DNA of 64,000 nucleotides from an uncultured Chloroflexia bacterium (lineage in GTDB: Bacteria > Chloroflexota > Limnocylindria > Limnocylindrales > CSP1-4): assembly GCA_963707215.1 (NCBI GenBank), contig CAVPPB010000002.1, forward strand, positions 352,001 to 416,000. Reading direction: 5' to 3'. The position numbers and the translations under genes are program-made. The notes under the pieces are model-generated. The model worked only from the letters and a program-made list of their open reading frames with translations, did not search any database and was not told where the DNA came from. Below are positions 2,777-63,047 of this stretch, in pieces. Positions within the stretch are counted from its first letter, which is position 1. Each line of letters starts with the position of its first letter.

Positions 2777-3403
2777 ATGAGTCGACGCGGCCACCGGGGA
2801 CGTCCCGGACGCCGCTCCTCGGGCCCCGCCAGCAGCGCCGTCCGGGGCCCGGCGCCCGCGCCCGGCCCCAGTGCCCGACCCGAGGACGGCGAGGCGACCT
2901 CGGCGTCGGCTGCGCCCGCCCCAGGCCAGCGTGCGCTGCCTCCATCGGCCGCCCGTGCCGACGGTCCGGCCCGGGTTCCTGCGGACGGGCCGACCGGCAA
3001 CGGCAACCTCCCGCACCTGGAGCGACCCGAGCCGGCGGCCGACCGGGCGCTCGGCACGGCCGTGACCCCTCGACGCGAGCCTGACGGCGAACCCGGCGCC
3101 AACGGTGCGGATGGCCAGGGCCGGAGCGGCGCCACACTCGCCCAGCTCCGCAGGTTCATCAAGAGCCGCCCCTACATGCCGATGCACGAGCTTCGACGCC
3201 GCTTCAGCCTGGACTGCGAGGCTGACGAAGTGCACTCGATCGACATCGGCGGCCGGTACCTCTACGTCGGCCTTCCCGAGCGCGAGGCGGGCTTCGTCGG
3301 CGAGCTGATCCGGACCGGCGAGGTGGGCTACGAGCTCCTGTTGGACCCGACCTGCCCGCTCGTCATCGGCGTCTACGCGATGCGCCCCGTGGTGCGGTCC
3401 TGA
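2777..3403 (+). CDS. hypothetical protein (disordered N-terminus, compact C-terminal domain)
   Basis: GGGGAGG RBS before ATG; C-terminal ~95 aa globular-looking (TLAQLRRFIKSRPY...VIGVYAMRP) with high GC3 codons. Confidence 0.7.
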   Translation: MSRRGHRGRPGRRSSGPASSAVRGPAPAPGPSARPEDGEATSASAAPAPGQRALPPSAARADGPARVPADGPTGNGNLPHLERPEPAADRALGTAVTPRREPDGEPGANGADGQGRSGATLAQLRRFIKSRPYMPMHELRRRFSLDCEADEVHSIDIGGRYLYVGLPEREAGFVGELIRTGEVGYELLLDPTCPLVIGVYAMRPVVRS

Positions 3404-3417
3404 CCGCACCCTTCGCT

Positions 3418-3483
3418 GTCGGCTGGACGACAGGAGGGGCGTCGTCAGGGCGGCTGGACGCAGTGGGCGGCTGCCGCCAAGAT
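3418..3483 (+). promoter_or_regulatory. shared upstream element (copy 1) + putative -10
   Basis: GTCGGCTGGACGACAGGAGGGGCGTCG at 3418-3444, then CAAGAT at 3478 (33-nt gap). Confidence 0.55.
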
Positions 3484-3530
3484 GGAGCGGACGCGACGAG
3501 CGACCCGTCGCCGCAGTGGGGTTCGAGACC

Positions 3531-3731
3531 ATGACGAAGCAGCAGAAGCCGATCGAACCGGACGACGCGGCCCCCCGCGTCGCCGAGGACGAGGACGACG
3601 TCGAAGGGCACAACATGATGCCGCTCGACCCGTCGTCTGCTCGCCATCTGGCGGGCGCGCGCGAGCGCGAGATCCGCAGCGACCTCGCCCGGCGCCAGCG
3701 CGAGCATGAGGCTCGACCGCACAAGCGCTGA
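3531..3731 (+). CDS. 66-aa small protein with acidic EDEDDVEGH motif (candidate precursor peptide)
   Basis: ORF followed by terminator; DVEGH motif shared with ORFs at 6938-7423 and 15587-16300. Confidence 0.75.
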   Translation: MTKQQKPIEPDDAAPRVAEDEDDVEGHNMMPLDPSSARHLAGAREREIRSDLARRQREHEARPHKR

Positions 3732-3750
3732 CCGACCGCCGGCCACGACG

Positions 3751-3782
3751 AGCGGCGTCCCCCGGGGCGCCGCTTCTTCGTG
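3751..3782 (+). terminator. intrinsic terminator
   Basis: AGCGGCGTCC...GGGCGCCGCT GC stem followed by TCTTCGTG just after the stop. Confidence 0.65.
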
Positions 3783-3873
3783 TGCGTCACGCCCGACATG
3801 AGCTTGGTCCCGCCGGACCGGTCCGGGTCCCCGGCACGACTCGGGACCCGTTCGGTCGTGGCGCTCCGTCGGA

Positions 3874-3984
3874 GTCGCCTGGGCGACAGGACGGAGGGCG
3901 CCGGCGCGACGGCTCGGCGGCCGGCCCGTCGACAGCCCAGACGTCGTCCAGGGGATCGCCCCGGTGGGACGACCGGGGCACCAT
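3874..3984 (+). promoter_or_regulatory. shared upstream element (two copies) + putative -10
   Basis: GTCGCCTGGGCGACAGGACGGAGGGCG (3874-3900) and GCCGGCCCGTCGACAGCCCAGACGTCG (3920-3946); CACCAT at 3979 (32-nt gap). Confidence 0.45.
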
Positions 3985-4047
3985 GAGGGCATCGATTGAA
4001 CGGACCCGAGCAGCACCAGCCGCGAGGGTCAGGAAGGGGACCGACCG

Positions 4048-4272
4048 ATGCTCGACACGAACAGCCGCTACATCGTCGCCAGCCGGACGATCGACGACCG
4101 CCTCGCCGAGGTCCGTCGAGCTCACGTCCTTCGCGAGGCCCGCGCCGGCGAGGACCAGCTCAAGGTCTCGACGCGGGTCCAGCGGGGGCCATCGCTTCTC
4201 GATCGCCTCGTCGCGGCGGTCGGCGCCCTTGGCGCCGGCGACCGGACCGCTCGCCCGGCAGGCGCTCGCTAG
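4048..4272 (+). CDS. 74-aa small helical hypothetical protein
   Basis: AGGAAGGGG RBS before ATG; high GC3; weak ungapped similarity to the post-DVEGH part of the 3531 peptide. Confidence 0.65.
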   Translation: MLDTNSRYIVASRTIDDRLAEVRRAHVLREARAGEDQLKVSTRVQRGPSLLDRLVAAVGALGAGDRTARPAGAR

Positions 4273-4317
4273 GATCTCGCCGTCCTCGATCGTTCCCCTC
4301 CCGCCCGGAGTGCCGGG

Positions 4318-4347
4318 TTGTCACTCCCGGACCGGCCCGCGTAGCAT
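4318..4347 (+). promoter_or_regulatory. putative sigma70-type promoter of crp-GAF-S8 operon
   Basis: TTGTCA-N18-TAGCAT; imperfect palindrome AGTGCC-N5-GTCACT (4309-4325) overlaps the -35. Confidence 0.4.
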
Positions 4348-4402
4348 GACTCGCGGGCCGGTCCGTTCGTTTGCCTCGGGCCCGGCGGCAGGAGAGGTTG
4401 GC

Positions 4403-5104
4403 ATGTCGGAGGACGACGGCTTCGCGCTGGAGGCGCTCCGCCGGTGCGCGCTCTTCGCCCAGGCCGACGAGGCGACGCTCCGTTCCTGCGCAGCCCAGCT
4501 GCGGACGAGACGCTTCCGCCGCGGCGAGACCATCTTCCACCAGGGCGATCCGGGAGACTCGCTGTTCATCATCCAGGACGGCTCGGTCAAGATCGTCCTC
4601 CCGTCACCCGAGGGCGAGGAGGCAGCCATCATCGCGACCCTGGGTCGCGGCGACTTCTTCGGTGAGCTGGCGCTCCTCGATGGGGCCTACCGCTCGGCCA
4701 CGGCCGTCGCGGTCGAGGCGTCCGAGACGCTGGTGCTGCGGCGAGAGCCGTTCGCCGCCCTCATCGACAGTGACCCCGGCCTGCGCCACGCGCTCCTGGC
4801 TGGTCTCGCAGCCGAACTGCGGCGCCTGACCGGTCACGTCGAGGAGCTCCACTTCCTGGACCTGCCAGGCCGGCTCGCGAGCCGGCTCGTCCGGATGGCC
4901 CAGGAACAGGACCCGGCTGCCAGCGGCGAGGTCGTGCTCGCCTGGCCGTTCACCCAGTCGGAGCTGGCCGCCATGATCGGGGGGACGCGGCAGACCGTGA
5001 ACCGGCTGCTCGCCGACCTGGTCGCCCAGGACCTCATCCGGTTCGAGCCCGACCGGCTGGTCATCACGGACCTCGAGCGCCTCTCCCGGGCGGCCGAGCG
5101 TTGA
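4403..5104 (+). CDS. Crp/Fnr family transcriptional regulator
   Basis: GGAGAGG RBS; cNMP domain (IFHQGDPG, GDFFGELALL, RSATAVA) and HTH TQSELAAMIGGTRQTVNR. Confidence 0.95.
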   Translation: MSEDDGFALEALRRCALFAQADEATLRSCAAQLRTRRFRRGETIFHQGDPGDSLFIIQDGSVKIVLPSPEGEEAAIIATLGRGDFFGELALLDGAYRSATAVAVEASETLVLRREPFAALIDSDPGLRHALLAGLAAELRRLTGHVEELHFLDLPGRLASRLVRMAQEQDPAASGEVVLAWPFTQSELAAMIGGTRQTVNRLLADLVAQDLIRFEPDRLVITDLERLSRAAER

Positions 5105-5132
5105 ACGCCGGTCGCGGGATCCGGCGCGGCCG

Positions 5133-5939
5133 ATGACGAGCCAGGGCCCGCCAGAAGCCTCCGACCTCGAGCGCGCCCTCGAGGCACTCCGGGCGGTGGC
5201 CCTCAGGGCCGAGGCTGCCCGGCGGCTCGAGCTCGGGAGCGGCGAGGCCGTCCTGCGGTCGGTCGTGGAGGCGGCCGTCTCCCTCTTCGACGCCGAGGCC
5301 GCGTCGATCGCGCTCTACGACCCGAGCGCGGATCGGCTGGTGTTCCTGGTCGCCGCCGGCGACCAGGGCCAGGGCGTCGTTGGCCTGTCGATCGGGCCCG
5401 ATCAGGGTCTCGTCGGCTACGTGTTCCAGACCGGTCAGCCGCTGGCCCTGTCGGATGTCCAGCGGGACCCCAGATTCGGGCGCTCCTTCGCCGAGAAGAC
5501 GGCCTACATCCCCCGGTCGATCGTCGCGGTGCCGCTCCTTGACGAGCAGGGCACCGTCGGGGTCCTCGAGGTCCTCGACAAGCGCGACGCGACGGCCTTC
5601 AGCCTGCGCGACATCGAGCTCACCTCGGTCTTCGCCCGCCAGGCGGCCGTCGCCATCCGCTCATCGCGGGTGGAGCGTGAGTCTGCCCTCCTCCTGGAGG
5701 AGGTGCTCCGGGCGACCCTCGGCGACCAGGTCGACGACCGGACCGTCGATGTCCTGGTGGCCGCGGCCGTCGATGATCTCGCCCGCGACGACACGGGAGC
5801 CCTCTGGGCGCTCGTCGAGCAGGTCGCCCGGGTCCGCCGGGCCGATCCGGATCAGCTCGCCCTCGTCACGGACCTGCTCGCCGTGCTGGCCGATCACGCC
5901 GGGCGCGGCCGAGCCGGTCGCCGGGCCCGTCGCGCCTGA
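5133..5939 (+). CDS. stand-alone GAF domain protein
   Basis: GAF pattern (EAASIALYD, GLVGYVFQTGQPL, DPRF, SIVAVPL, GVLEVLDK, FSLRDIEL); helical tail, no kinase or cyclase domain. Confidence 0.9.
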   Translation: MTSQGPPEASDLERALEALRAVALRAEAARRLELGSGEAVLRSVVEAAVSLFDAEAASIALYDPSADRLVFLVAAGDQGQGVVGLSIGPDQGLVGYVFQTGQPLALSDVQRDPRFGRSFAEKTAYIPRSIVAVPLLDEQGTVGVLEVLDKRDATAFSLRDIELTSVFARQAAVAIRSSRVERESALLLEEVLRATLGDQVDDRTVDVLVAAAVDDLARDDTGALWALVEQVARVRRADPDQLALVTDLLAVLADHAGRGRAGRRARRA

Positions 5940-5945
5940 GCCGCG

Positions 5946-6783
5946 ATGACCGACGAGGCGCTCCTGCCCGCCTGGAGCGAGCCGTTCGCCGGCGAGCGAC
6001 GGACCAGGCTGAGCCACCTGCCGCCATTCGGACGGCTCGGGCGCGACTGGGCCTGGGGAGGGTCCGACGGCAGCGGCTGCACGGTCGCGATCATCGACTC
6101 GGGGATCGAGCCCGATCACCCCGACGTCGGCGGTCGGTTGCTCCGGAGCGTCGTCGTCGAGCTCGACGCGGAGGGCGAGCCGGTCGTCCGCGACGACCCC
6201 GAGGCTCGCGACGTCGTGGGACACGGCACGGCCTGCGCCGGGATCGTCCATGCGCTTGCCCCGGGGGCGGACATCCTGTCCATCCGCGTGCTCGGCCCCG
6301 ACAACCGCGGCAAGGGCGCGGTCTTCGCCGCCGGCCTGGACTGGGCGATCGAGGCCGGTGCCAGCGTCGTCAACCTGAGCCTGTCGTCGAAGAGCGAGGC
6401 CCTGTTCGGGGTCTTCCACGACCTCGCCGATCGGGCCTACTTTGCGAACACTCTGCTGGTCTCGGCCGCCAACAACTACCCGGGTGCGTCGTACCCGTCG
6501 CTCTTCGCCGCGGTGGTCTCGGTCGCCGCCCACGATCTCGCCGATCCGGCCGTCTACCTCTACAACCCGGATCCGCCCGTCGAGTTCGGAGCCCACGGCG
6601 TCGACGTCGAGGTCGCCTGGCGGGGCGGTACGCCGGATGGTCGCCACGGGCAACAGCTTCGCGGCCCCGCACATCGCCGGGTACGCGGCGCTGATCCGTT
6701 CCAAGCACCCGGAGGCGTCCCCGTTCGAGGTGAAGGCGATCCTCGCGGCGACCGCCGACAACGCCCGCGCCCCGGTCGGCTGA
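5946..6783 (+). CDS. compact cytoplasmic S8 subtilase; +1 frameshift near 6633
   Basis: Catalytic Asp VAIIDSGI and His GHGTACAG in frame 5946; Ser motif TGNSFAAPHIAG in the next frame ending 6783; no signal peptide or prodomain. Confidence 0.88.
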
Positions 6784-6937
6784 TCAGCACCTGACCGGTC
6801 GGCCGAGGCGGACCCGGGACACGCGTCGCCGCCCGCCGGATCCGACGCTGGGCCGGGGGCGGGCGGCGGTGCTGAGGAACGGGAGCCGGGTCGTGGGAGC
6901 GAGGCCCGGCGGGACCCGTCCGATCAGGTGGTCGGTC

Positions 6938-7423
6938 TCACTCCCCGCTGTTCCGGGCAGTCCGGAAGCCGTGGCCCTCGACGTCGTCGTCCTCGGTGGC
7001 CTTCGGCACTGCGCCCTCGCGCGGGATCCCCGCCTCGCGCGGCACCCCTGCCTCACGGGGCAATCCGGCCTCGCGGGGCTGGCCGAAGCCGTGGCCCTCG
7101 ACGTCGTCTTCGGTCGGGACGGCGCCCTCGCGCGGGATGCCCGCCTCGCGCGGGATGCCCGCCTCGCGCGGGATGCCCGCCTCGCGCGGCACCCCTGCCT
7201 CACGGGGCAATCCGGCCTCGCGGGGCTGGCCGAAGCCGTGGCCCTCGACGTCCTCGTCACCGGTGGCCCGGGGGACGGCGCCTTCGCGCGGGATCCCCGC
7301 CTCGCGCGGCACCCCGGCCTCACGGGGCAATCCGGCCTCGCGGGGCTGGCCGAAGCCGTGGCCCTCGACGTCCTCGTCGTCGGACTCCCGCGTACGCATG
7401 AAGCCCTCGTTCTCGTTGACCAT
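6938..7423 (-). CDS. multi-cassette repeat protein: 4x DVEGHGF separating xPREAG hexapeptide arrays (candidate polyprotein precursor)
   Basis: GGAGG RBS just upstream of ATG (7430-7434); repeats in frame; DVEGH motif shared with two other ORFs. Confidence 0.8.
   Translation of the reverse strand: MVNENEGFMRTRESDDEDVEGHGFGQPREAGLPREAGVPREAGIPREGAVPRATGDEDVEGHGFGQPREAGLPREAGVPREAGIPREAGIPREAGIPREGAVPTEDDVEGHGFGQPREAGLPREAGVPREAGIPREGAVPKATEDDDVEGHGFRTARNSGE
6965..7380. repeat. nested tandem repeat: 18-bp units within three ~120-150-bp cassettes
   Basis: Recurring gaagccgtggccctcgacgtc and gcctcgcgcgggatgccc-like units. Confidence 0.95.
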
Positions 7424-7478
7424 GTCGTTCCTCCGCTGGGAGCCGGTCGGCGGGCCGATCGCCCGCGGCTACCAGGGC

Positions 7479-7544
7479 AGACTACCGTGCGTGTCGAGAC
7501 TCGGCGTAGCGGCGTGGTGACCGCTCCGCTGTCGCCGAGCCGAC
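7479..7544 (-). promoter_or_regulatory. shared upstream element + putative -10
   Basis: Minus strand GTCGGCTCGGCGACAGCGGAGCGGTCA (7544-7518), then TAGTCT at 7484-7479 (33-nt gap). Confidence 0.55.
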
Positions 7545-7565
7545 ACCGCAGGCGACGGCACCGAC

Positions 7566-9242
7566 CTAGGGACGGCGGACGCCCGGTCCCCGATACAACT
7601 CCATGAGGCGGACCGACAGGCCAGGTCCGGCACCCACGAGCGCGAGGAAGTCGGAGCCGTCGAGGACGAGGAGTCGGCCCTCGGACAGGGCGGTCACGGT
7701 CGCGGTCCGGGGCGTCTCGCGGAGCAGGCCGAGCTCGCCGAAGACTCGGTCCGGGCCGAGCTCCCGGAGTCGCACCGGCTGCCCGTCGGCGTCCGCCTGG
7801 TCCACGGCGAACCGGCCATCCTCGATGACGTAGAAGCGGTCGGCCGGCTCGCCCTCCCGCACGACGACCTGGCCGGCCGCGACCGTCAGGGGCTCGAGGC
7901 GGGCGACGGCCGCCTCCATGGCCGCCGGGGGCACGCCTGCGAAGAGCGGAAGGCCGGCGACCCGCCGCAGCGTCGCCGACGGCCCATCCGGGGCCATACT
8001 CAGGTCAGGGCCGACGAGCGCGACGGCGACGACCGCGGCGACCACGACCGCCGCACCGGTCGCAGCGAGGACCGGCAGCGGCCCGAGGCTGTCGGCCAGC
8101 ACCGGGACCACCAGCGAGCCCGCGGCGTACGCCAGCGTGGAGACGGTCAGGATCCCGCCGAGGGCCCGTCCGCGGATGGCATCCGGGACGAGCCGTTGGA
8201 AGACGGTCGTCCCGACGACCTCGACGATCAGGCTGCCGGTCGCCGTCGCGGCCATCGCCACGAGGGCGAGCGCGACGATGTCGGCCGCCCCGAGTACGGC
8301 GAGCCCGATGCCCAGCAGCACCGCCCCACCGAGGAGCGGCCCGGCGAGCGACGGACGGAGCACGAGTGCGCCGCTGCCGACCGCGCCGATGAGCCCGCCC
8401 ACCCCGATCGCCGCATTGAGGTAGCCGGTCACCTCCTCGCCGGCCCCGAGCTGGTCGCTCGCCAGCAGGACCGTCAGGACGCCCAGCCCGCCGAACGCGA
8501 ACCCGCCCACGACGTCGAGCGTGCCCAGCCCGATCAAGGGGCGCAGGACGGGCCGGAGCAGCGAGGCAGCGGTCTCGGACGGGGCATCGTTCTTGGCTGG
8601 GGCGTCGCCACCGGGCGCGGGCGTCCCGGCGTCGTCGCGGCTGACCGTGCCCTTCGATGACGGCAGCGTCCAGAGGACGATCGCGACGATCCCGAACGTG
8701 ATCGCGTTGAGGATGAACGCCAGTCCCAGGTCGGCGACCGCCAGCAGCAGCCCGGCCAGGCCCGGTCCGACGATGAAGGCCAGGTTGTCGAGCCCGGCCC
8801 AGGCGCTGTTGGCCGGCCCGAGCTCGCGCTCGTCGCGGACCAGGGTCGGCAGGTAGGACCCGATGGCCGGCCCGAAGAACGCCGAGAAGCAGGTCGCCAC
8901 GATGGCCACGAGGACGATCCCGACGAGGGGACCGTCTGTGAGGACCAGCCAGGCCAGGACCACCATGCAGAGGCCCCGCGCGAGGTCGGTCGTGAAGAGC
9001 ACGAGCCGGCGGTCGAAGCGGTCGGCGGCCAGCCCGGCCGGTAGCGAGAGGACCACGTAGGGCAGCACCCGGGCGGCCCCGACGAGACCGAGAAGGAAGG
9101 CGTCGTTGCTCTCGCGGTAGACGACGACGAGCAGGGCGACGAGGTAGAGCCAGTCGCCGATCGACGAGACGAACTCGCCGGCCAGGAGCCGTGTCACCGG
9201 TCGGTTCGACAGCAGCGCGCGGTAGGTCGCCATCGCGCCCAT
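7566..9242 (-). CDS. MFS transporter with C-terminal cyclic-nucleotide-binding domain
   Basis: About 12 TM segments, GLAADRFDRR motif A; C-terminal VVVREGEPADRFYVIEDG...FGELGLL...RTATVTA; start approximate. Confidence 0.92.
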   Translation of the reverse strand: MGAMATYRALLSNRPVTRLLAGEFVSSIGDWLYLVALLVVVYRESNDAFLLGLVGAARVLPYVVLSLPAGLAADRFDRRLVLFTTDLARGLCMVVLAWLVLTDGPLVGIVLVAIVATCFSAFFGPAIGSYLPTLVRDERELGPANSAWAGLDNLAFIVGPGLAGLLLAVADLGLAFILNAITFGIVAIVLWTLPSSKGTVSRDDAGTPAPGGDAPAKNDAPSETAASLLRPVLRPLIGLGTLDVVGGFAFGGLGVLTVLLASDQLGAGEEVTGYLNAAIGVGGLIGAVGSGALVLRPSLAGPLLGGAVLLGIGLAVLGAADIVALALVAMAATATGSLIVEVVGTTVFQRLVPDAIRGRALGGILTVSTLAYAAGSLVVPVLADSLGPLPVLAATGAAVVVAAVVAVALVGPDLSMAPDGPSATLRRVAGLPLFAGVPPAAMEAAVARLEPLTVAAGQVVVREGEPADRFYVIEDGRFAVDQADADGQPVRLRELGPDRVFGELGLLRETPRTATVTALSEGRLLVLDGSDFLALVGAGPGLSVRLMELYRGPGVRRP

Positions 9243-9433
9243 CGCTACGGCGCCCACGTCCGCGTGCTCGACCCCTCCGCCATCGGGGGAGTGTACGGCT
9301 CGTCCCGCCGCTCGCGCCGGTCGTCGGGGTGCGGACAGGACCATCGAAGGGTGGTCTGCGCTCCGGGCGGCGGGCAGGCTAGCGAGGTCGTCGGCGCGAC
9401 CGCGTCTGGGTCAAGGAAAGCGGGAGGCTCCCC

Positions 9434-12050
9434 ATCAACGTTCGCCGAGCGCTGCTCGCAGCGCTGCTCCTCGTCGTCGTGTCCACGGGAGGGACCTCGG
9501 CCGCCGAGCCGGTCCCGTCACCCGCAGCATCCAGCCCACCCGTCGAACCGAGCGTGTCCCCGCTCCCGCCCGACCCTGTCGTCGCCGCTCCCGAGGTCGA
9601 GCAAGTCCCGGCAGCCGCCGGACCCGTCGGCGCGCCCGACGTCGCAGCCGAGCCACTCTCGGCCAGGGGCCGGTACATCGTCCTGCTTCGCGACGGCTCG
9701 ACCTCCGCGCTGGCGAGCTCGCTCGGTCGTCGCTGGGGGTTCCAGCCCGATCGCGTGTTCAGCCGGGCGGTCCGGGGCTTCTCGGCGACGCTGCCGGACG
9801 CGGTCCGCGACCGCCTCGCCCGCGACCCGGACGTCGCAGCGGTGATCCCCGACGAGGTCATCGAGCTCGCCTGGGTGCGCCCGACCGGGATCCGCAGGGT
9901 CAACGCCCCGAGCTCGCCGCTCGCCGACATCGACGCCATCGACGACGCCCGGGTCGATGCCGACATCGCGATCGTGGATACCGGGATCGATCGGACCCAC
10001 CCTGACCTCGACGTCGTCGGCGGCATCAACTGCTCGACGAGCGATCCGAACGCCTGGCGTGACGTGCACGGCCACGGGACCCACGTCGCCGGCACGGCCG
10101 CGGCCATCGACAAGTCGAGCGGGGTCGTCGGCGTCGCCCCCGGCGCCCGGCTGTGGGCGGTCAAGATCCTCAACGACCAGGGCGACGGCCTGCTGTCCTG
10201 GTACGTCTGCGGGCTCGACTGGATCGCCGCCCAGCGCGACCCGTCCGACCCTGACCGGCCGCTCTTCGAAGCGGTCAACATGAGCGTCACCAAATCGGGG
10301 AGCGACGACCAGGCCTGCGGGGACCGCAACGGCGACATCCTCCACCAGGCCATCTGCCGGCTCGTCGGCAGCGGGGTCACCGTCGTCGCGGCGGCCGCCA
10401 ACGACAGCAAGGACGCCGCACTGCGCGTGCCGGCCTCGTACGACGAGGTCATCACGGTCTCGGCGCTGGCCGACATGGACGGGCTCCCCGGCGGGAAGGG
10501 GCCCCAGCTCTGCGGCTCGTACGACGCCGACGACACGTTCGCCGACTTCTCGAACTACGGCGCCGACGTCGACATCATCGCGCCCGGCAAGTGCATCTGG
10601 TCGACCCTCCGGGGGAACCGCTACGGCTACTCGTCGGGGACATCGATGGCGGCACCGCACGTCACCGGCGCCGTCGCCCTGTACAAGGCGTCCCGACCGG
10701 AGGCCACTCCGGCCGAGATCAAGGAGGCCCTGCGGTTCCTGGGGACCTCGGATTGGAAGACCTGGACGGATCCGGATCCCTGGCACGAGCCGCTCCTCGA
10801 CGTGTCACGGCTCGGCCCCCTGGGATCGTTCTCGATGGCTGTCCTGCCCGAGTCCTCCGGCACCGGCGGTGATGACAGCGCCGAGACGACGGTCACCGCC
10901 ACGGTCGCCCTCGTCCGATCGACCACCTTCTTCGAGCCGGTGTCCCTGGCGGCCGAGACGCCCGACGGCATCACCGCGACATTCGACAAGCCGCGCCTCA
11001 TGGGCTTCGGGGTCACCGGGACGACCATGACCCTGACCGCCGCTCCCGGCATCGACCCCGCCGAGATCCCGGTGACGATCCGGGCGACCTACAAGGACAT
11101 CGTCCGGACCACGACCCTGACCCTCGACGTCGAGCCAGCCGCGGTCCGCCTCGCCGGGGCCGACCGCTACGCGACCGCCGCGGCGATCAGCGCGGCCTCC
11201 TTCGGCCCGGGGGTCGCCGTCGCCTACGTGGCCACCGGGGCGAACTTCCCCGACGCCCTCGCCGGCAGCGCCGCCGCCGGCAGCGCCGGGGCCCCGGTCC
11301 TGCTCGTCACGAGGGACACCATCCCGACCGCCACCGCGACCGAGCTCGGCCGCCTCAAGCCGGGTCGGATCGTCGTCCTCGGCGGCGCCTCCGTCGTGAC
11401 CGACGCGGTCAAGGCGGCCCTCGCGCGGTACACCGCCGGCTCGGTCAGCCGCCTCGCCGGGGCCGACCGCTACGCGACCGCCGCGGCGATCAGCGCGGCC
11501 TCCTTCGGCCCGGGGGTCGCCGTCGCCTACGTGGCCACCGGGGCGAACTTCCCCGACGCCCTCGCCGGCAGCGCCGCCGCCGGCAGCGCCGGGGCCCCGG
11601 TCCTGCTCGTCACGAGGGACACCATCCCGACCGCCACCGCGACCGAGCTCGGCCGCCTCAAGCCCGCTCGGATCGTCGTCCTCGGCGGCGCCTCCGTCGT
11701 GACCGACGCGGTCAAGGCGGCCCTCGCGCGGTACACCGCCGGCTCGGTCAGCCGCCTCGCCGGGGCCGACCGCTACGCGACCGCCGCGGCGATCAGCGCG
11801 GCCTCCTTCGGCCCGGGGGTCGCCGTCGCCTACGTGGCCACCGGGGCGAACTTCCCCGACGCCCTCGCCGGCAGCGCCGCCGCCGGCAGCGCCGGGGCCC
11901 CGGTCCTGCTCGTCACGAGGGACACCATCCCGACCGCCACCGCGACCGAGCTCGGCCGCCTCAAGCCCGCTCGGATCGTCGTCCTCGGCGGCGACCGGCG
12001 TCGTGACCGACGCGGTCAAGGCGGCCCTCGCGCGGTACACCAGGCCGTAG
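9434..12050 (+). CDS. secreted S8 subtilase with inhibitor-I9-like prodomain and three cell-wall-binding-2 (CWB2)-like repeats; +1 frameshift near 11993
   Basis: IAIVDTGI, GHGTHVAG, SGTSMAAPHV triad; repeats RLAGADRYATA...FPDAL...PVLL...VVLGG; signal peptide if started at ATC 9434; last repeat completes at TAG 12050 in the shifted frame. Confidence 0.85.
11147..12041 (+). repeat. three near-identical 303-bp tandem repeats (CWB2-like domains)
   Basis: Unit start cgcctcgccggggccgaccgctac at 11147, 11450 and 11753. Confidence 0.95.
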
Positions 12051-12065
12051 GCCTGGCTGGACCCC

Positions 12066-12719
12066 TCAGCCGCCCTCCCCGGGCATCGCCAGGGCGGCAG
12101 TCGGCAGGACCGTGCCCTCGAGCGAGAGCAGCTCTCGCTTGAGCTCGAGGAGCTCCTCGCGGGTCCCGAACCAGGACCCGCCGTAGCCACCGAGCGTCCC
12201 ATCGCCGGCGATGACCCGGTGGCAGGGCACGATCAGGCCGATCGGGTTCCGGCCGACGGCCCCGCCGGTCGCCCGGGCGGCCCCGTGTGCACCGATCGCC
12301 GTCGCGACCCGTCCATAGCTGGTCACGCGACCCCACGGGACGCTCCGGACGGCCTCGAGCACCCGGCGGTCCCAGGCGGATAGCCCCCGCAGGTCGATGG
12401 GCAACGACAGCCTCTCGGGCTCCCCTGCCCAGAAGCGGTCCAGGTGTCGCGCGAGCCGGTCGATCAGGGCTCGTCGGGCCGCTCCGGCACGACGGCCTGC
12501 GATCGGATCACGGTGCGTCCGCCGCACCAGGTGAGATGCGAAGGCATCGTCGGTCGATCGGAGCTCGAGCGCCACGACGGCCTGCGTGGTGACGGCCAAC
12601 CGCACGGGGCCCAGGGGACCGTCGAGGACCGCGATCGCGGTCGTCGCCGCCCCGGCGGGCGCTTCCTGCGCACGGTCGACCAGCGCGGCCGTCGGGGGCT
12701 CGGTCTCGTCTCCCGGCAT
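12066..12719 (-). CDS. ogt: methylated-DNA--protein-cysteine S-methyltransferase
   Basis: [24 protein letters not shown], active site PCHRV, GGYGG. Confidence 0.93.
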
Positions 12720-12729
12720 GTCGCAAGTC

Positions 12730-12771
12730 TTGCCGTTCAGGACGGCCGACTGCTATACTCGGGGGGAGTAT
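12730..12771 (+). promoter_or_regulatory. copA promoter with CsoR-type operator
   Basis: TTGCCG-N18-TATACT; palindrome ATACTC-GGGGG-GAGTAT (12755-12771) with G-tract. Confidence 0.7.
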
Positions 12772-12773
12772 CG

Positions 12774-15497
12774 ATGGACATCACCACCGCGTCCCCGACC
12801 CCGCCAGCCGGCAGCGCACCGCTGGAAGTCCAGCTGCCCGTGGCCGGGATGACCTGCGCCTCGTGCGTCAACCGCATCGAGCGGTTCCTCAACAAGACCC
12901 CGGGGGTCGAGGAGGCGACGGTCAACCTCGCCACCGAGATGGCGACCATCCGGTACCTGCCGAACCTCGCGGGCCGCAGCGACCTCGTCGGCGCGATCGA
13001 GGCGGCTGGCTACGAGGTCAAGCCGTCGGCCCTCGTGGAGCCGGCCGCGGACGACGGGGCATCCGCCGCCGACGCGCTCGAGGCGGCCCAGGCGGCCGAG
13101 GAGGTCGAACGGGCGCGCGAGCTGCGCCTGATGCTGACCCAGTCGATCGTCGCCGTCGCCGTCGCCCTGGTCGCCATGGTCCTCATGTTCTGGCCGCAGA
13201 CGGTCGTCCCGATGGAGGAGCTCAACAAGCTCATCCTCTGGCCCGCCACGATCGTCCAGTTCTGGGCCGGCGGCCGTTTCTACCGGGCGGCCTGGCGAGC
13301 GCTCCGTCACGGCGGAGCCACGATGGACACCCTGGTCGTAGCCGGGACCAGCGCCGCCTGGGTCTACTCGGTCTTCGTCACCATGTGGCCCGAGGTCATC
13401 CACGCGGCGGGCCTGCACCCCGAGACCTACTTCGAGTCCTCGGCGATCATCATCGGCCTCGTCCTGCTGGGTCGCTGGCTCGAGCTGCGCGCCCGAGGCC
13501 AGACGACCGGCGCGATCCGACGCCTGATGGGTCTCCAGGCGACGACCGCCCGGCTCGTCCGCGGCGACGAAGAGGTCGACGTCCCACTCGCCCAGGTCGT
13601 GACCGGCGACCTGCTGCGGGTCCGCCCCGGCGACAAGGTCCCGGTGGACGGGGTGCTCGTCGAGGGCGGGTCGGCCGTCGACGAGTCGATGCTCACGGGC
13701 GAGGCCATCCCGGTGTCCAAGGCCATCGGCGACGAGGTCATCGGGGCGACCATCAACACGACCGGGTCGTTCGTCATGCGGGCGACCCGGGTCGGTCGCG
13801 AGACCGCCCTCGCCCGGATCGTCGAGATGGTCCAGCGTGCGCAGGGCTCCAAGGCCCCCATCCAGCGCCTCGCAGATCGGATCTCGGCCTGGTTCGTCCC
13901 GTTCGTCCTCATCGTCGGCGCCATCACCTTCGCCATCTGGTTCCTGGGTGGGCCGGAGCCCCGCCTGACCCTGGCGCTCACCGCCTTCATCGCGGTCGTC
14001 GTCATCGCCTGTCCGTGTGCCATGGGCCTCGCCACGCCCACCGCGATCATGGTCGGGACCGGCAAGGGGGCCGAGGCCGGCGTCCTGGTCCGTGGGGGCG
14101 AGGCGCTCGAGATCGCGCACAAGGTCGACGCCGTCCTGTTCGACAAGACCGGGACCCTGACCCTGGGCCGCCCGGCCGTGGCCGGGGTCGTCCCGGCCGA
14201 TGGCTGGTCGGCGGGCGAGATCCTGGACCTCGCCGCGTCGGCCGAGAAGGGCAGCGAGCACCCGCTGGCGGAAGCGATCGTCGCCAGAGCGCAGCAGGAT
14301 GAGCTCGGCTTCCGGGCCGTCGACGGGTTCGAGGCCGTTGCCGGTCACGGGGTGGTGGCGACGGTCGACGGCCGGCGCGTCCTGGTCGGCAACGCCCGGC
14401 TGCTTGCCGAGCACGCGGTCGCGATCGAGCGGCTGGAGGATGTCGCGGCGGCCGAGGCCGCGAACGGGCGCACCCCGGTCTTCGTCGCCGTCGACGGCCA
14501 GCCGGCCGGGGTCGTCACGATCGCCGATCCGGTCAAGGCCGAGTCCGCGCAGGCGATCCGGCAGCTCGCCGGCATGGCCGTCGACGCCTGGATGATCACC
14601 GGCGACCGGCGGACGACGGCCGAGGCGGTCGCCCGCCAGGTCGGCATCCCCTCGGACCGGGTGCTCGCGGAGGTCCTGCCCGGCGACAAGGCCGCAGCGG
14701 TCGAGCGTCTCCAGGCCGAGGGCCGGACGGTCGCGATGGTCGGTGACGGGATCAACGACGCGCCCGCGCTCGCGCAGGCCGACCTCGGCATCGCCATCGG
14801 CACCGGGGCGGACGTCGCGATCGAGGCGTCGGATATCACGCTCGTCGGCGGCGATCCCCGTGGGGTCGTCTCGGGCCTGGTCCTCTCCCGGCGGACGATG
14901 CGGGTGATCCGCCAGAACCTCTTCTGGGCGTTCGCCTACAACGTCCTGCTCATCCCGGTGGCGATGGGCGCCCTGTACCCGACCTTCGGGATCACCCTCG
15001 CGCCGGCGATGGCGGCCGGAGCGATGGCCCTCTCGTCGGTGTCGGTGGTCACGAACTCGCTCCGGCTGCGCTCGGTCCGCATCCGCCCGGACGAGGTCCG
15101 CGCGGAGGGGCGGGGCCTGGGCGCGCGGATCGCGGACGCATCCTTCCTGGCGGTCATCGCCCTCCTCGCCGGCGGGCTGGTGGCCGGGGTCATCGCTGCC
15201 GACCGGGCCGTCGCGGCCGGGTCGACCCAGGTCGACCTGGTGGCCCGGGACGTCGCCTTCTCGACCGACGAGATCCGGGTCCGGGCCGGCGAGCTGTTCA
15301 CCGTGACGCTGGTCAACGAGGACCCGGTCCTCCATGACTGGATGGTCGAGGGTGTTGCCAACGTCGAGGTCATCGCCAGGCCCGGCGCCACGGCGAGCGA
15401 CCGGTTCGTCATCGACCAGCCCGGGACCTACGAGTTCATCTGCTCGTACGAGGGCCACGCCGAGGCCGGCATGGTCGGGATGCTCATCGTCGAGTAG
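12774..15497 (+). CDS. copA: Cu(I)-translocating P1B-type ATPase with C-terminal cupredoxin domain
   Basis: [33 protein letters not shown] and MALSS motifs; tail with H...[11 protein letters not shown]. Confidence 0.95.
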
Positions 15498-15543
15498 GCC
15501 CGACCGGGACGGCTCGCGGGCCAGCCGCTGCAGCGGACATGAA

Positions 15544-15571
15544 GAAGCGGGCGCCCCCCGGCGCCCGCTTC
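15544..15571. terminator. hairpin/terminator between convergent genes
   Basis: GAAGCGGGCGCC-CCCC-GGCGCCCGCTTC 12-bp stem; followed by TTC on the minus strand. Confidence 0.75.
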
Positions 15572-15586
15572 GTTGGCTGTGTGGCG

Positions 15587-16300
15587 CTACTGGGCCCGAG
15601 GCTCCCCGGGGCGCCCGACCATGTCGTCGGCGGCGTCCTTCGGAGCCAGCGGCCCCGCCGGCCCGCCATCTCGGTCGCGGACGGCGGGGTTGGCCGAGTC
15701 CGGGGCCTGCACGGCCGTCCGGCTGACCGCCTCGTCCGGGGTGGCATCGCGGACCATCGGATCGACCCAGGCCGGAGCCGGCGGTGTCTTCGCCAGGTCG
15801 CCGGCCCGGATCTCCGCGGCCAAGCCCGGCGCCACGGCGGGGGCGGGGATCGCCCGCGACCCCGCGAGGTCTCCGCCCGCGATCTCGGCGGCAAGGCCGG
15901 GTGCCATGTCAGGGACCGGGATGGACGCGGCCTGCGTCTGGCTACCGGCGGTCGGGGCTGTCAGATCAGAGACCAGCATCGAGGTCGTCGCTGCCCCAAC
16001 AACGATGACACCGGCGATCCCCGCCGCCAGGAGCTTGCGCTGCAGGTCGCGGGCCGCCTCGGCGTTCGGCAGCCGCAGCGAGAGGGCGTGGCCCTCGACG
16101 TCGTCCTCATCGAACAGTCGCAGGGTGACGGTCGTGGACAGGCCGTGGCCCTCGACGTCGGCGCTCTCGTCTGCCGCGATCCGCATCTTGTTGCCGGCAT
16201 AACCGGTCGCGAGGAGATCACGGAGCTGCCCGCTGATCGCCCCCTCGATCGCCCCTTCGACCTCTGTCCCGTCCGCGAGCTTCAGTCGCAGCGCGCTCAT
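15587..16300 (-). CDS. single-TM membrane protein with two DVEGH motifs before the TM and duplicated APGLAAEIxxGDLA repeat after it
   Basis: GAGGTG RBS before ATG 16300; SADVEGHG and DEDDVEGHA; TM LLAAGIAGVIVVGAA. Confidence 0.75.
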   Translation of the reverse strand: MSALRLKLADGTEVEGAIEGAISGQLRDLLATGYAGNKMRIAADESADVEGHGLSTTVTLRLFDEDDVEGHALSLRLPNAEAARDLQRKLLAAGIAGVIVVGAATTSMLVSDLTAPTAGSQTQAASIPVPDMAPGLAAEIAGGDLAGSRAIPAPAVAPGLAAEIRAGDLAKTPPAPAWVDPMVRDATPDEAVSRTAVQAPDSANPAVRDRDGGPAGPLAPKDAADDMVGRPGEPRAQ

Positions 16301-16346
16301 CTCCAGCCACCTCATGGTCGGGTCGCCTGTCGTCCCGTGCCCCAGC

Positions 16347-16411
16347 ACTCTAGGCGCGACGCAGGCCTACGACCAGTCCTCCAGCGACATGGCGCCTGTC
16401 GTCTGGCTGAC
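16347..16411 (-). promoter_or_regulatory. shared upstream element + putative -10
   Basis: Minus strand GTCAGCCAGACGACAGGCGCCATGTCG (16411-16385), then TAGAGT at 16352-16347 (32-nt gap). Confidence 0.55.
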
Positions 16412-16497
16412 ACCTCGACCCGCGACGCGCCCGGGTCGGCGGGCGGGCCGGTGCCGATCGCCCATCCCGCGTCCAGCCGGCGCGCTAGTCTCCGCCC

Positions 16498-17439
16498 ATG
16501 ACCTTCTCCCTGGTCGCTCGCGATCCGGCCACCGGCGACCTCGGCGTGGCGGTCGCGTCGCGCTTCCTCGCGGTCGGCTCGGTCGTGCCCCACGCCCGGG
16601 CCGGCACCGGCGCGGTCGCCACCCAGGCCCTGGCCAACGTCGCCTACGGGCCGGACGGTCTGGCGCTGCTGGCCGACGGCATCGGCGCGACCGACGTCGT
16701 CGCCCGCCTCACGACGCTGGACCAGCATCGCGATCACCGCCAGGTGGGCGTGGTCGACCGCGATGGCGGCGCCGCCTCGTTCACCGGGTCCGCCTGCTCG
16801 GGCTGGGCCGGCGGACGGACCGGCCCGGGCGCCGCGGCCCAGGGCAACATCCTGGCCGGGCCGGAGGTCGCGGAGGCCCTCGTCGACGCCTACGTGGGCG
16901 CCTCGGGTGCGTTCGCCGACCGCCTGCTGGCCGGCTTGCTGGCGGCCGATCGGGGCGGCGGCGACCGCCGTGGTCGCCAATCCGCGGCCCTGCTCGTCGT
17001 CCGCGCGGGTGGTGGCTACATGGGGGGCGACGATCGATGGCTCGACCTGCGGGTCGACGATCACCCGGACCCGGTCGTCGAGCTGATCCGCCTGCGCGGT
17101 CTTCATCGCCTGCTCTGGGAGCCGGTCGACGAGGCGGACCTGGTCCCGCTCGACGTCGCGCTGGCGACGGAGCTGCGCGGGCTCCTAGAGGACGTCAGGG
17201 GCGAGGCCCGGACGAGGACGGAAGTCTACGAGGCGCCCCTCCCCGCCGAGTTGGAGGCGCTCTTCCCGTCGGGTGCGGCCATCGCACCGCGGCCGTACCC
17301 GGCTGGCTGGGACGATGCCTGGCAGGCCAGGCTCATCGCGTGGATGGGGATGGAGAACCTCGAGGGCCGGGTTGTGGCGCCGGGCTGGATCGACCGGGCG
17401 ACGCTCGAGCACCTGCGGGGGGCCGTCGGGACCGCCTGA
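16498..17439 (+). CDS. DUF1028 (Ntn-hydrolase-like) protein with C-terminal extension
   Basis: MTFSLVARD...GVAVAS, GAVATQ, QGNILAG, GGDRRGRQSAAL, DLRVDDH. Confidence 0.9.
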   Translation: MTFSLVARDPATGDLGVAVASRFLAVGSVVPHARAGTGAVATQALANVAYGPDGLALLADGIGATDVVARLTTLDQHRDHRQVGVVDRDGGAASFTGSACSGWAGGRTGPGAAAQGNILAGPEVAEALVDAYVGASGAFADRLLAGLLAADRGGGDRRGRQSAALLVVRAGGGYMGGDDRWLDLRVDDHPDPVVELIRLRGLHRLLWEPVDEADLVPLDVALATELRGLLEDVRGEARTRTEVYEAPLPAELEALFPSGAAIAPRPYPAGWDDAWQARLIAWMGMENLEGRVVAPGWIDRATLEHLRGAVGTA

Positions 17440-26238: not shown

Positions 26239-27230
26239 CCCGCCGCCTCCGTGGTCGGATGCGTCAGCGGGCCGCGCATGAGATGGCGGTCGGGGAGCGG
26301 CCGGTAGCCGAGCCGGCCGTTGATCGAGCGCATCGGGGCATTCTCGGTGTCGTTGGTCGTCTCGAGGGCGACGAGGCCCGCCCCGATGGCCCAGGCGACG
26401 GTCGCTCGCTTCAGGGCCGAGGCGATCCCCCGGCCTCGTGCCGAGCGGGCGACCGCGGTCATGTCGTGGATGCCCACGTCGGGCCGTTCGTCGGACACGG
26501 TGACGTTGGCGTAGCCCACCACCCGGTCGGCCGCGTCGAGGGCGACGAAGAACGCGTCCGGCCGGTTGCCGGGCGAGTCGACGTCGCGGGCCCGGAACTC
26601 GTCGAGATCGCCCGCGGCCATCGGCTCGGAGCCGGGGATGTCGGGGAACGCCTCGATCGCGACGGCGTGGATCCCGGACAGCAGGTCGGGACGGTCCGCG
26701 AGCGTGACCATCCGGATGCCGGTAGGCAGCGTCACGGCCGGCGCCGTCCGTCCGGCCAGGTCGAGGCGGACCGCCTTCGAGGTCTCGATGACCTCGAAGT
26801 CCCGGTGCCGGAGGAACTCCATGCTCTCCGGCCGATCCGCCCGGACCTGGGTCTCGAGGGCGAGCTTGCCGGCGACCCGGGCCACGGCGGACACGGCCGC
26901 GAGGAGCCGGGAGCCGATGCCCTGCCGCCGCGCGTCCGGGAGGACGGCCACGGACATCCAGTACGCGTCGTACTCGGCCGGCAGGACGAAGATCCGGCCC
27001 ACGTCGGCCATGCCGACGGCACTCCCGGCCCCGTCCTCGGCGAGGAAGAAGGCGCCGCCCGGATAGAGGGCGTAGGCCCAGCGCAGCCAGGCGGCGCCCC
27101 GGGCGTCGTCGGGGTCGACCGCGGCGAGGACCCGGGCGGCCGACTCGAAGTCCGCGTCGGTGCCGTCCGCCCGGCGGATCCGGATGGCGGGCGCCTCACC
27201 GCGCTCGGCCACCCGGGCCGGTCCGGTCAC
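26235..27230 (-). CDS. tandem GNAT N-acetyltransferase
   Basis: Two acetyl-CoA motifs RRQGIG and RGRGIA; [13 protein letters not shown]. Confidence 0.88.
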
Positions 27231-62196: not shown

Positions 62197-63047
62197 GCAG
62201 CGTCGCGACGGCCGGCGTCCGCCGGGCCCATCCCCCCTCACCGCGCCCCGGCCAGGGCCTCCGCGACGCCATCGAGAACGCACTGCCGGCGATCGTCTCC
62301 CTGGGCGTCGGTGCGATCCTGTGGGAGGTCGCGGCCCGGGTCTGGGACGTCGCCTTCTTCCCGCCGCTCTCGGTCGTTCTTGGCCGCCTCGTGGAGATGA
62401 TCGGGGACGGGCTGATCATCGAGAGCCTTGCCAACAGCCTCCTGAACCTTGCCCTCGGCTTCGGCTTCTCGGTCGTCGTCGGCGTCGGGATCGGGATGCT
62501 GATGGGCGCCTACCGCCGGGTCGACATGGCCCTCGACGTCTACGTCTACGCGTTGCTGACGGCCCCGTCCCTCGTCTTCGCGCCGATCCTGCTGGCCGTG
62601 TTCGGGATCGATGGGATCCGCTTCGCGGTCATCGGGGTCATCGTCCTGTACTCGATCTTCATCATCATCGTGAACACGACGGCAGCGATCAAGGGAACGT
62701 CGCCGGCGCTCATCGAGATGGGGCGCGCCTACTGTGCCACCGACCGCCAGCTCTTCCGCCGGATCATCCTGCCGGCTGCGCTGCCGCTCATCTTCGCGGG
62801 GTTGCGGCTCGGGATGGCCCGGGCGGTGAAGGGGATGATCAACGGCGAGATGTTCATCGCGGTCGTCGGCCTGGGGGCCGTCGTCCAGAACTCCGGCAAG
62901 CGCTTCGACGCCGCGTCCGTGCTCGCCGTCCTCATCGTGATCATCGTCGTGGCGATGGTCCTCGTGAAGCTCGTCCAGCTCCTTGACGCGCGGGCCACCA
63001 GCTGGCTCCCGTCCACCGCCCGGACGCGGCGCAGGCGCGGCACGTGA
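62193..63047 (+). CDS. ABC transporter permease (TauC/SsuC-like)
   Basis: FPPLS, LIEMGRAYCA, LPAALP. Confidence 0.9.
   Translation: MSSVATAGVRRAHPPSPRPGQGLRDAIENALPAIVSLGVGAILWEVAARVWDVAFFPPLSVVLGRLVEMIGDGLIIESLANSLLNLALGFGFSVVVGVGIGMLMGAYRRVDMALDVYVYALLTAPSLVFAPILLAVFGIDGIRFAVIGVIVLYSIFIIIVNTTAAIKGTSPALIEMGRAYCATDRQLFRRIILPAALPLIFAGLRLGMARAVKGMINGEMFIAVVGLGAVVQNSGKRFDAASVLAVLIVIIVVAMVLVKLVQLLDARATSWLPSTARTRRRRGT

Follow-up and report, generated by a model that had tools for sequence, protein, structure and literature searches.

What do the upstream regions of three unannotated genes in an uncultured Chloroflexia bacterium have in common, and which protein might read it? The question is raised by a 64-kb stretch of DNA with 72% G+C (the whole of which is referred to below as the window), in which three genes encode proteins containing the five-residue motif DVEGH. 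A first-pass annotation of this sequence had proposed that every DVEGH gene is preceded by an element of about 27 bp at a fixed distance from a -10 hexamer, and that one factor, with a Crp-family protein encoded nearby as the candidate, co-regulates them. The analysis presented here indicates that the shared upstream sequence is a conserved putative binding site of the Crp-family type whose distance from a weak promoter is constant, and that this site marks a small undescribed regulon in uncultured soil and freshwater bacteria.

The codons for DVEGH occur at four places in the window, three of which lie in genes (genes 1 to 3, below); the fourth, at 62526-62540 on the minus strand, is spurious, being antisense to an ABC permease gene. 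All three real DVEGH genes carry the proposed element, as the annotation had it, and its four 27-mers and extra copy were found again in the window with the same sequences and coordinates. The gaps between element and hexamer also proved correct, at 33, 33, 32 and 32 nt (for CAAGAT, TAGTCT, TAGAGT and CACCAT, respectively). What had been overlooked is a 16-bp palindrome, TGTCG-N6-CGACA, which begins one base to the left of the described element; the N6-GTCR at the far end of the earlier consensus is a third half-site, tGTCg, 7 nt past the palindrome. The composite operators, the promoters and genes behind them and the candidate regulator are given here with scores from a weight matrix (in bits) and from a calibrated sequence profile (as E-values, which are rough by the tool's own statement).

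3417..3444, plus strand: composite operator 1, with the exact dyad TGTCGGCTGGACGACA at 3417-3432 and the third half-site cGTCG at 3440-3444 (28.1 bits; E 1.6e-9)
3454..3483, plus strand: promoter predicted for DVEGH gene 1, weak and of the sigma-70 type, with the -35-like CTGGAC at 3454-3459 and the -10 CAAGAT at 3478-3483
3531..3731, plus strand: DVEGH gene 1, 66 amino acids, in which a single DVEGH motif is accompanied by a basic tail at the C terminus
7518..7545, minus strand: composite operator 2, with the exact dyad TGTCGGCTCGGCGACA at 7545-7530 and the third half-site gGTCA at 7522-7518 (24.9 bits; E 2e-8)
7484-7479, minus strand: predicted -10 hexamer of the operator 2 promoter, TAGTCT, in register
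6938..7423, minus strand: DVEGH gene 2, 161 amino acids, with four DVEGHGF motifs between PREAG repeats
16385..16412, minus strand: composite operator 3, with the dyad TGTCAGCCAGACGACA at 16412-16397 (one mismatch) and the third half-site tGTCG at 16389-16385 (26.3 bits; E 2.6e-6)
16352-16347, minus strand: predicted -10 hexamer of the operator 3 promoter, TAGAGT, in register
15587..16315, minus strand: DVEGH gene 3, about 240 amino acids, with two DVEGH motifs, a hydrophobic and possibly membrane-like segment and a Pro/Ala-rich tail
4403..5104, plus strand: Crp-family regulator and candidate binder, with the Pfam domains cNMP_binding (PF00027, 1.3e-27) and HTH_Crp_2 (PF13545, 8.1e-17)

Each palindrome is an inverted repeat of two 5-bp half-sites 6 bp apart, which is the form of a CRP/FNR-type operator. 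As had been remarked before, the site differs from the canonical TGTGA-N6-TCACA, its half-site being TGTCG; the mismatch in operator 3 is a TGTCA on the gene side. Within the 64 kb, only four matches to TGTCG-N6-CGACA with at most one mismatch are present, two of them exact (3417 and 7530) and two not (16397 and 3873). The exact palindrome therefore occurs twice against 0.08 expected, and the palindrome followed eight bases downstream by GTC is found, at up to one mismatch, four times against 0.27 expected. The consensus of the first-pass annotation matches six times against 0.22 expected, a circular figure, since it was derived from the same sequences.

The same operator recurs in related genomes. 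Eighty loci of up to 20.7 kb each (1.18 Mb in total) were fetched with the Crp-family protein of 4403-5104 as the query, at 60-81% protein identity, and nearly all are labelled as metagenome-assembled genomes of Chloroflexota, Chloroflexia or Candidatus (Ca.) Limnocylindria/Limnocylindrales. The exact dyad is present there in 50 copies, compared with 0-7 for 29 other orders of the half-site letters. The spacing is similarly exclusive: a spacer of 6 nt yields the 50 copies, and spacers of 0-5 and 7-12 nt yield 0-4, while the 50 dyads contain 45 distinct spacer sequences. Codons for D[VT]EGH (DVEGH or DTEGH) lie 100-350 nt downstream, in one orientation, of 37 of the 50, compared with a base rate of 3.3% of positions. 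The remaining 13 include six in crp promoters, one with DVEGH codons 407 nt on, past a run of N, and one at a contig end.

Conservation extends to positions on which no selection had been made. Sites that had at most one mismatch in the dyad, and behind which D[VT]EGH codons follow after 100-350 nt, were stacked in an ungapped pile-up, 82 in all. With the initial T of the dyad as position 1, the palindrome occupies positions 1-16, the third half-site 24-28, a TT pair 38-39 and a TAnnnT hexamer starts at 61 or 62, giving the layout TGTCG-N6-CGACA-N7-tGTCg-N9-TT(-35)-N17/18-TAnnnT. GTC stands at 25-27 in 76 of the 82 sites (mean of 1.3 at other positions), the single letters G25, T26 and C27 being present in 79, 77 and 79. 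A T is found at 38 or 39 in 77 sites, and YANNNT begins at 61 or 62 in 67, with a mean of 0.57 at other positions. Once the 1-nt slip is taken up by MAFFT, conservation of the A and the T in the -10 reaches 90% or more and the remaining columns carry about 0 bits; the 6-nt spacer and the flanking columns vary freely between sites. The three window hexamers coincide exactly with the -10 columns of the pile-up, and the boxes of the gene 1 promoter fall on the conserved T38/T39 and A62/T67 columns. Dozens of related genomes have the same composite element, in the same -35/-10 register, ahead of their D[VT]EGH genes, and the proposal that one factor co-regulates them is strongly supported. That a DNA element is common to the three DVEGH genes also supports the view that the peptide motif is itself functional.

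Models trained without the window lead back to the same sites. A position weight matrix (PWM) built from the 79 non-window sites was used to score both strands of the window, and its top three matches were 3417 (28.1 bits), 16412 (26.3 bits) and 7545 (24.9 bits), the next independent match after these DVEGH sites being 3873, with 15.8 bits. The calibrated profile, made from 75 of the 79 sites after four had been dropped, placed the four annotated sites first, with E-values of 1.6e-9, 2e-8, 2.6e-6 and 3.8e-5. Its matches, other than that to the fourth site (described further below), are these:

3415-3485, plus strand: site 1, E 1.6e-9
7548-7477, minus strand: site 2, E 2e-8
16415-16347, minus strand: site 3, E 2.6e-6
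3874-3927, plus strand: the extra dyad, E 0.0086
26421-26467, minus strand: first unrelated match, E 0.023

When all loci were searched by nhmmer with the same alignment, 73 matches were returned, of which eight lay outside the training set: five before DVEGH-like codons, two at contig ends and one that was a reverse reading of a palindrome. Within the related loci, it is thus before D[VT]EGH genes specifically that the full layout occurs. A comparison in which the PWM matched 75 of 93 D[VT]EGH frames and 33 of 1498 random segments is partly circular, as the matrix had been trained on those sites, and was not relied upon.

Which protein, then, might bind the palindrome? The product of 4403-5104 combines an N-terminal cNMP-binding-type domain with a C-terminal Crp-type helix-turn-helix, the arrangement of the CRP/FNR family. 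Its closest solved relative is Mycobacterium tuberculosis CRP (Rv3676; PDB 3d0s, 3mzh), which it matches over the full length with an E-value of 8.7e-38. It is 32% identical to Escherichia coli CRP, with R196, Q197 and R201 aligning to R180, E181 and R185, and it retains the cAMP contacts E72, R82 and S83 (E. coli numbering). The recognition helix reads TRQTVNR, as opposed to SRETVNK in the M. tuberculosis protein, whose site is of the TGTGA type. The Gln at the Glu181 position is almost invariant, the motif R-Q-[ST]-V-N-[RK] being present in 76 of 77 aligned orthologues. In other respects the protein departs from a cAMP-responsive CRP proper: its triad is R/Q/R, the site is TGTCG, and its score against the NCBIfam CRP equivalog NF008732 is 94.9, below the cut-off of 266.

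The substitution at position 181 has an experimental precedent. According to PMC2677863, engineered E. coli CRP variants with Gln181/Thr185 or Ala181/Arg185 activate an operator in which positions 7 and 8 are changed from GA to CG, which gives TGTCG, and thereby support the residue-to-base pairing suggested here. The way in which the site deviates from the canonical CRP box is what the helix of this Crp, with its Gln for Glu181, would lead one to expect. Unlike the engineered variants described there, the natural protein has an Arg/Gln/Arg or Arg/Gln/Lys triad, and it would show that the change of specificity from Glu181 to Gln also occurs in nature, in a CRP of the cNMP type. The Crp-type 5-6-5 palindrome and the Gln together strengthen the candidacy of the Crp protein proposed in the annotation, although physical binding is something that we still infer. 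In genomic terms, 63 of the 80 loci have D[VT]EGH genes no more than 1.5 kb from crp (upstream in 29, downstream in 32 and on both sides in 2), and the dyad is found in the promoter region of crp itself in 16 of 76 loci, as a rule 4-5 nt ahead of a CTTGAC -35.

Two known systems invite comparison. CooA, a CRP/FNR activator by which Rhodospirillum rubrum and Desulfovibrio sense CO, recognizes a box with identical half-sites, for which PMC545781 gives the 16-bp palindromic consensus TGTCGGCnnGCCGACA; the window sites TGTCGGCTGGACGACA and TGTCGGCTCGGCGACA resemble it further in that GC follows TGTCG in both. The specificity of CooA has likewise been modelled on a CRP variant with Gln at 181 (PMC2677863). 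The differences are that the window regulator retains the cyclic-nucleotide contacts, that its putative targets are D[VT]EGH proteins rather than the coo CO dehydrogenase/hydrogenase operons, and that the operator adds a third half-site at fixed spacing. No CO-dehydrogenase/hydrogenase Pfam family was found among the open reading frames (ORFs) scanned in 1-21 kb of the window. To the class I/III promoters of E. coli CRP, the likeness lies in the shared domain architecture, the 5-6-5 dyad upstream of a weak -35 and the strict core-promoter spacing, while TGTCG in place of TGTGA, Gln in place of Glu181 and the predicted position of the dyad set the two apart.

The promoters themselves bear on the direction of control. 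A strict scan for the sigma-70 consensus gave a single match in 3300-7700:

4318..4347, plus strand: consensus-like crp promoter, TTGTCA-18-TAGCAT

The same scan gave no match in 15400-16600, nor did it detect the gene 1 promoter. The DVEGH promoters are thus judged weak, since they are missed by a scan that the crp promoter passes. An operator lying upstream of a weak -35, with no more than 1 nt of play in its spacing, points to activation; activators that touch RNA polymerase typically keep such a rigid distance from the -10. Were transcription to begin 7 nt past the -10, the centre of the dyad would fall near -64.5/-65.5 and the third half-site near -47/-48, so that the element would span -72/-73 to -46/-47, in agreement with the -72 to -45 estimated originally.

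How could these parts work together? Each DVEGH gene would be driven by a weak sigma-70-type promoter with a fixed upstream operator; a dimer of the Crp-family protein would read the palindrome through the recognition helix that carries Gln in place of E. coli Glu181; and, when bound to a cyclic nucleotide, it would recruit RNA polymerase and thereby switch on the D[VT]EGH genes jointly. Activation of the D[VT]EGH genes together by this Crp is probably the correct account of the locus. Of its parts, the binding of the element by the protein of 4403-5104 can be predicted with good confidence, and activation as the outcome is reasonably likely.

Several observations weigh against this account. 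The crp gene is present in every locus by design, Crp having been the query, so that co-occurrence is no evidence of binding. The R/K variants of the helix show no significant covariation with TGTCA-type half-sites (p = 0.13). The binomial probability of the association between dyad and D[VT]EGH codons, 3e-44, overstates the independence of loci that are orthologous. In the window taken by itself, the palindrome at up to one mismatch is found 4 times against 4.53 expected, a raw count that is at chance level and not significant. The -10 elements and +1 positions of the DVEGH promoters are themselves predictions, and the dyad centre of -64.5/-65.5 predicted from them falls between -61.5 and -71.5, the classical positions of class I CRP sites in E. 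coli. Positions 35-39 might pair with the third half-site as a second full dyad, but conservation is lacking there, with only a mild enrichment of C35 (44 of 82) and G36 (45 of 82). Finally, in 36 of the 80 orthologues the phosphate-binding Arg (R82) is replaced by His; the ligand is uncertain for this reason and may differ within the orthologue family.

The sign of regulation could be the reverse, with Crp binding the same sites and repressing or anti-activating the DVEGH promoters, perhaps through the third half-site abutting the -35. This is unlikely, yet it deserves to be taken seriously. The third half-site lies some 9 nt upstream of the -35-like TT, a position that leaves repression open, and CRP/FNR proteins act in both directions (PMC545781). 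The dyads located 4-5 nt before the strong -35 of crp in 16 of 76 loci would be compatible with either sign. However, neither the -10 nor the predicted start is overlapped by any half-site, the DVEGH core promoters are weak, and their -10 spacing has the rigidity, to within 1 nt, that polymerase-contacting activators typically display. These features favour activation as the role of Crp.

It is also conceivable, if doubtful, that the operator is real and is bound by another protein, either a CRP/FNR paralogue or an unrelated dimeric regulator, and that Crp is a bystander or a co-target. The choice of loci by a Crp query and the lack of significant helix-site covariation are what such a situation would allow; moreover, a single Crp dimer leaves the third half-site unexplained, and the crp promoter of the window is without a dyad. 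Yet the 5-6-5 geometry and the TGTCG sequence match the reading expected of Gln at 181 (PMC2677863), the adjacency of crp and DVEGH genes persists through changes of gene order, and the dyad does occur in crp promoter regions elsewhere. A conserved neighbour considered as an alternative regulator is a 208-residue protein encoded at 2777-3403; it belongs to no Pfam or NCBIfam family, resembles none of the solved structures searched, and is present in 26 of the 80 loci only. The Crp of 4403-5104 thus remains the preferred binder.

The presence of several short conserved blocks at fixed spacing might instead signal the promoter of an alternative sigma factor, with no operator at all, and GTC-containing -10 boxes do occur for ECF sigma factors. 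This is very unlikely, as blocks 1-5 and 12-16 are reverse complements of one another, a property of dimer sites, and the separate TT...A...T pattern with its 17-18 nt spacing fits sigma-70. That the element acts as RNA, whether it forms a small hairpin, ends transcription of the upstream gene or structures a leader, is more improbable still: the palindrome can form a stem of 5-6 bp, site 1 folds at -17.5 kcal/mol and the dyad follows directly on the crp stop codon in many loci, but shuffled sequences fold as well as site 1 does (z = -1.38), no Rfam match reaches the gathering score anywhere in the window, a 5-bp stem without a U-tract makes no terminator, and the half-sites are conserved in sequence and located upstream of the -35/-10, hence outside the transcript that they would control. 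Lastly, the caveat attached to the annotation, that GTCG and CGAC words are frequent at this G+C content, could draw on the chance-level count of near-matching dyads and on GNCGACAGS, which occurs 20 times in the window against 14.8 expected, but as an explanation it is refuted by the scrambled half-sites and other spacers, by the unselected columns conserved in 76-79 of the 82 sites and by the recovery of the window sites, at E 1.6e-9 to 2.6e-6, with models from other genomes, and retains next to no credibility.

Two further sites lie between gene 1 and crp, where the annotation had listed a fourth element, before an ORF of 74 amino acids, and an extra copy at 3874-3900.

3919..3946, plus strand: partial operator before the 74-residue ORF, with a degenerate left half (GGCCG) and with the right half (CGACA) and the third half-site (cGTCG) intact
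3873..3888, strand not assigned: extra dyad AGTCGCCTGGGCGACA, with one mismatch (AGTCG) and without a third half-site (15.8 bits; E 0.0086)
4048..4272, plus strand: the 74-residue ORF, a possible weak regulon member, matched at the corresponding position by a homologue in locus L005 (E 1e-15) and, weakly, by another in L001 (E 0.015)

The fourth site is borne out in its right and third half-sites and in a -10, CACCAT at 3979-3984, that stands in register; with its left half degenerate, however, it is a weaker and partial site. It scores 9.3 bits over positions 1-28 and 14.2 bits over 1-67, and its profile match at 3929-3985 on the plus strand (E 3.8e-5) covers model positions 15-71 only, the left half-site being missing. 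It is a plausible weak member of the regulon. The extra copy is where it had been placed and contains a good dyad, but it lacks the third half-site and has two mismatches to the earlier consensus; a counterpart with two mismatches exists in L005. The 74-residue product has no Pfam or NCBIfam family. An exact or one-mismatch dyad without a third half-site also precedes a small ORF in four other loci (L010:7900, L015:7795, L022:8014 and L077:7885), the products being of the type MWNNYTV...GR..DR.AEARA.RLA. A likeness between these and the 74-residue ORF is visual only, and no link was returned by tblastn.

The DVEGH proteins belong to no Pfam or NCBIfam family. For gene 1, 11 homologues were found at E <= 0.001, the first being the protein of the window itself, and the four that carry a source name are all called 'hypothetical protein'; for gene 2, no homologue at E <= 0.001 was present among 8000 scored candidates. 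In the ESM Atlas, D[VT]EGH proteins match only clusters of 'hypothetical protein', mostly from Chloroflexota, with scores of 0.81-0.90. Across the loci the proteins take two forms. The first has 1 to 11 repeats, behind which there is often a conserved basic tail resembling ...ARARE.DIQR...EARRPHKK; a regular expression for this tail matched 7 of 103 proteins, was too strict and was not used. The second has two motifs in an N-terminal part of about 95 residues, followed by a hydrophobic segment. In the alignment of the gene 3 family, with 8 sequences, the D, G and H positions are invariant; an AlphaFold2 model of gene 3 from this alignment reached a mean pLDDT of 40.1 and was not used. The start of gene 3 may be the ATG at 16300. 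In 11 loci (L045, L046, L047, L049, L052, L053, L055, L057, L059, L060 and L067), the open frame ahead of the first Met of the gene that follows crp reads ...GGEA.DDD.VEGH[IMT]M..., which adds one more VEGH motif before the first ATG; these genes have either a non-canonical start further upstream or a conserved leader.

Terminator-like hairpins follow genes 1 and 3, and both genes therefore look monocistronic.

3750..3784, plus strand: terminator-like hairpin with a U-rich tail after gene 1, with a core stem of 11 pairs and z -1.45, which falls short of a terminator call
15571-15544: terminator-like hairpin after gene 3

Taken together, this is probably a new regulon of the CRP/FNR family, with a box of the CooA type, an extra half-site and unannotated targets, and its operator links three protein types that share only a five-residue motif. 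A literature search on the DVEGH and DTEGH motifs found no paper on bacterial proteins of this kind. Among the titles and abstracts listed for Limnocylindria, no such regulon is described, and nothing of the kind appears among the matches listed for TGTCG/CGACA together with Crp, although the latter search is not conclusive. For a class of uncultured Chloroflexota, the site, its geometry, the candidate regulator and the predicted residue-base pairing amount to a testable regulatory code.

A wider and rather speculative possibility is raised by the genes around crp:

5133..6794, plus strand: companions of crp, namely a GAF protein at 5133-5939 and an S8 peptidase at 5946-6794, both identified by Pfam
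7566..9344, minus strand: MFS transporter fused to a cNMP-binding domain, identified by Pfam, directly upstream of operator 2 and present in 52 of the 80 loci

The GAF protein was found in 69 of the 80 loci and the S8 peptidase in 67. Conceivably, Crp, the GAF protein, the S8 peptidase, the MFS-cNMP protein and the acidic, repeat-bearing D[VT]EGH proteins form a cyclic-nucleotide module that extends throughout the Ca. Limnocylindria lineage, with a new promoter architecture for the CRP family and with the D[VT]EGH repeats as functional units. The operator would then hold one full dimer site plus a half-site beside the -35, the latter possibly seeding a second dimer near -42, and the repeats might be cut out by the linked S8 peptidase or might bind metal through Asp, Glu and His. 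The S8 peptidase gene of the window is split over two frames, 5946-6794 covering Peptidase_S8 positions 1-180 and 6442-6783 the C-terminal positions 222-275; the split reflects a frameshift, a pseudogene or an error of assembly, located within the 6442-6783 overlap of the frames.

Some features of the surroundings may be added. The gene at 2777-3403 lies directly upstream of operator 1, and the C-terminal 90 or so residues of its product are what is conserved at this position in the 26 loci. Gene 3 converges on a P-type ATPase gene at 12444-15497, with HMA and cupredoxin domains, and the same neighbourhood is seen at L003:16652-19405; the linkage was considered as evidence for a metal-related role and dropped, being present only here and in L003 and not in the other loci with the ATPase. 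Operator 3 is located in a divergent region of 182 nt (16316-16497) shared with a DUF1028 gene (16498-17439, plus strand). Its palindrome could serve both directions, and its third half-site points to the DVEGH gene. A second GACGACAGG stands at 16326-16334 on the minus strand, 10 nt ahead of the gene 3 ATG at 16315. In L052:682-800, three overlapping dyads of the TGTCAA type, 20-21 bp apart, occupy the region that separates crp from a divergently oriented D[VT]EGH gene, and constitute an operator array of a sort absent from the window. Lastly, in 4318-4375 the -10 of the window's crp promoter, TAGCAT, is bracketed by a perfect 14-bp inverted repeat (4328-4341 and 4352-4365) that is followed by TTCGTTTG. 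This repeat folds well (z = -3.1), and could be a terminator for the 74-residue ORF or an operator or attenuator for crp.

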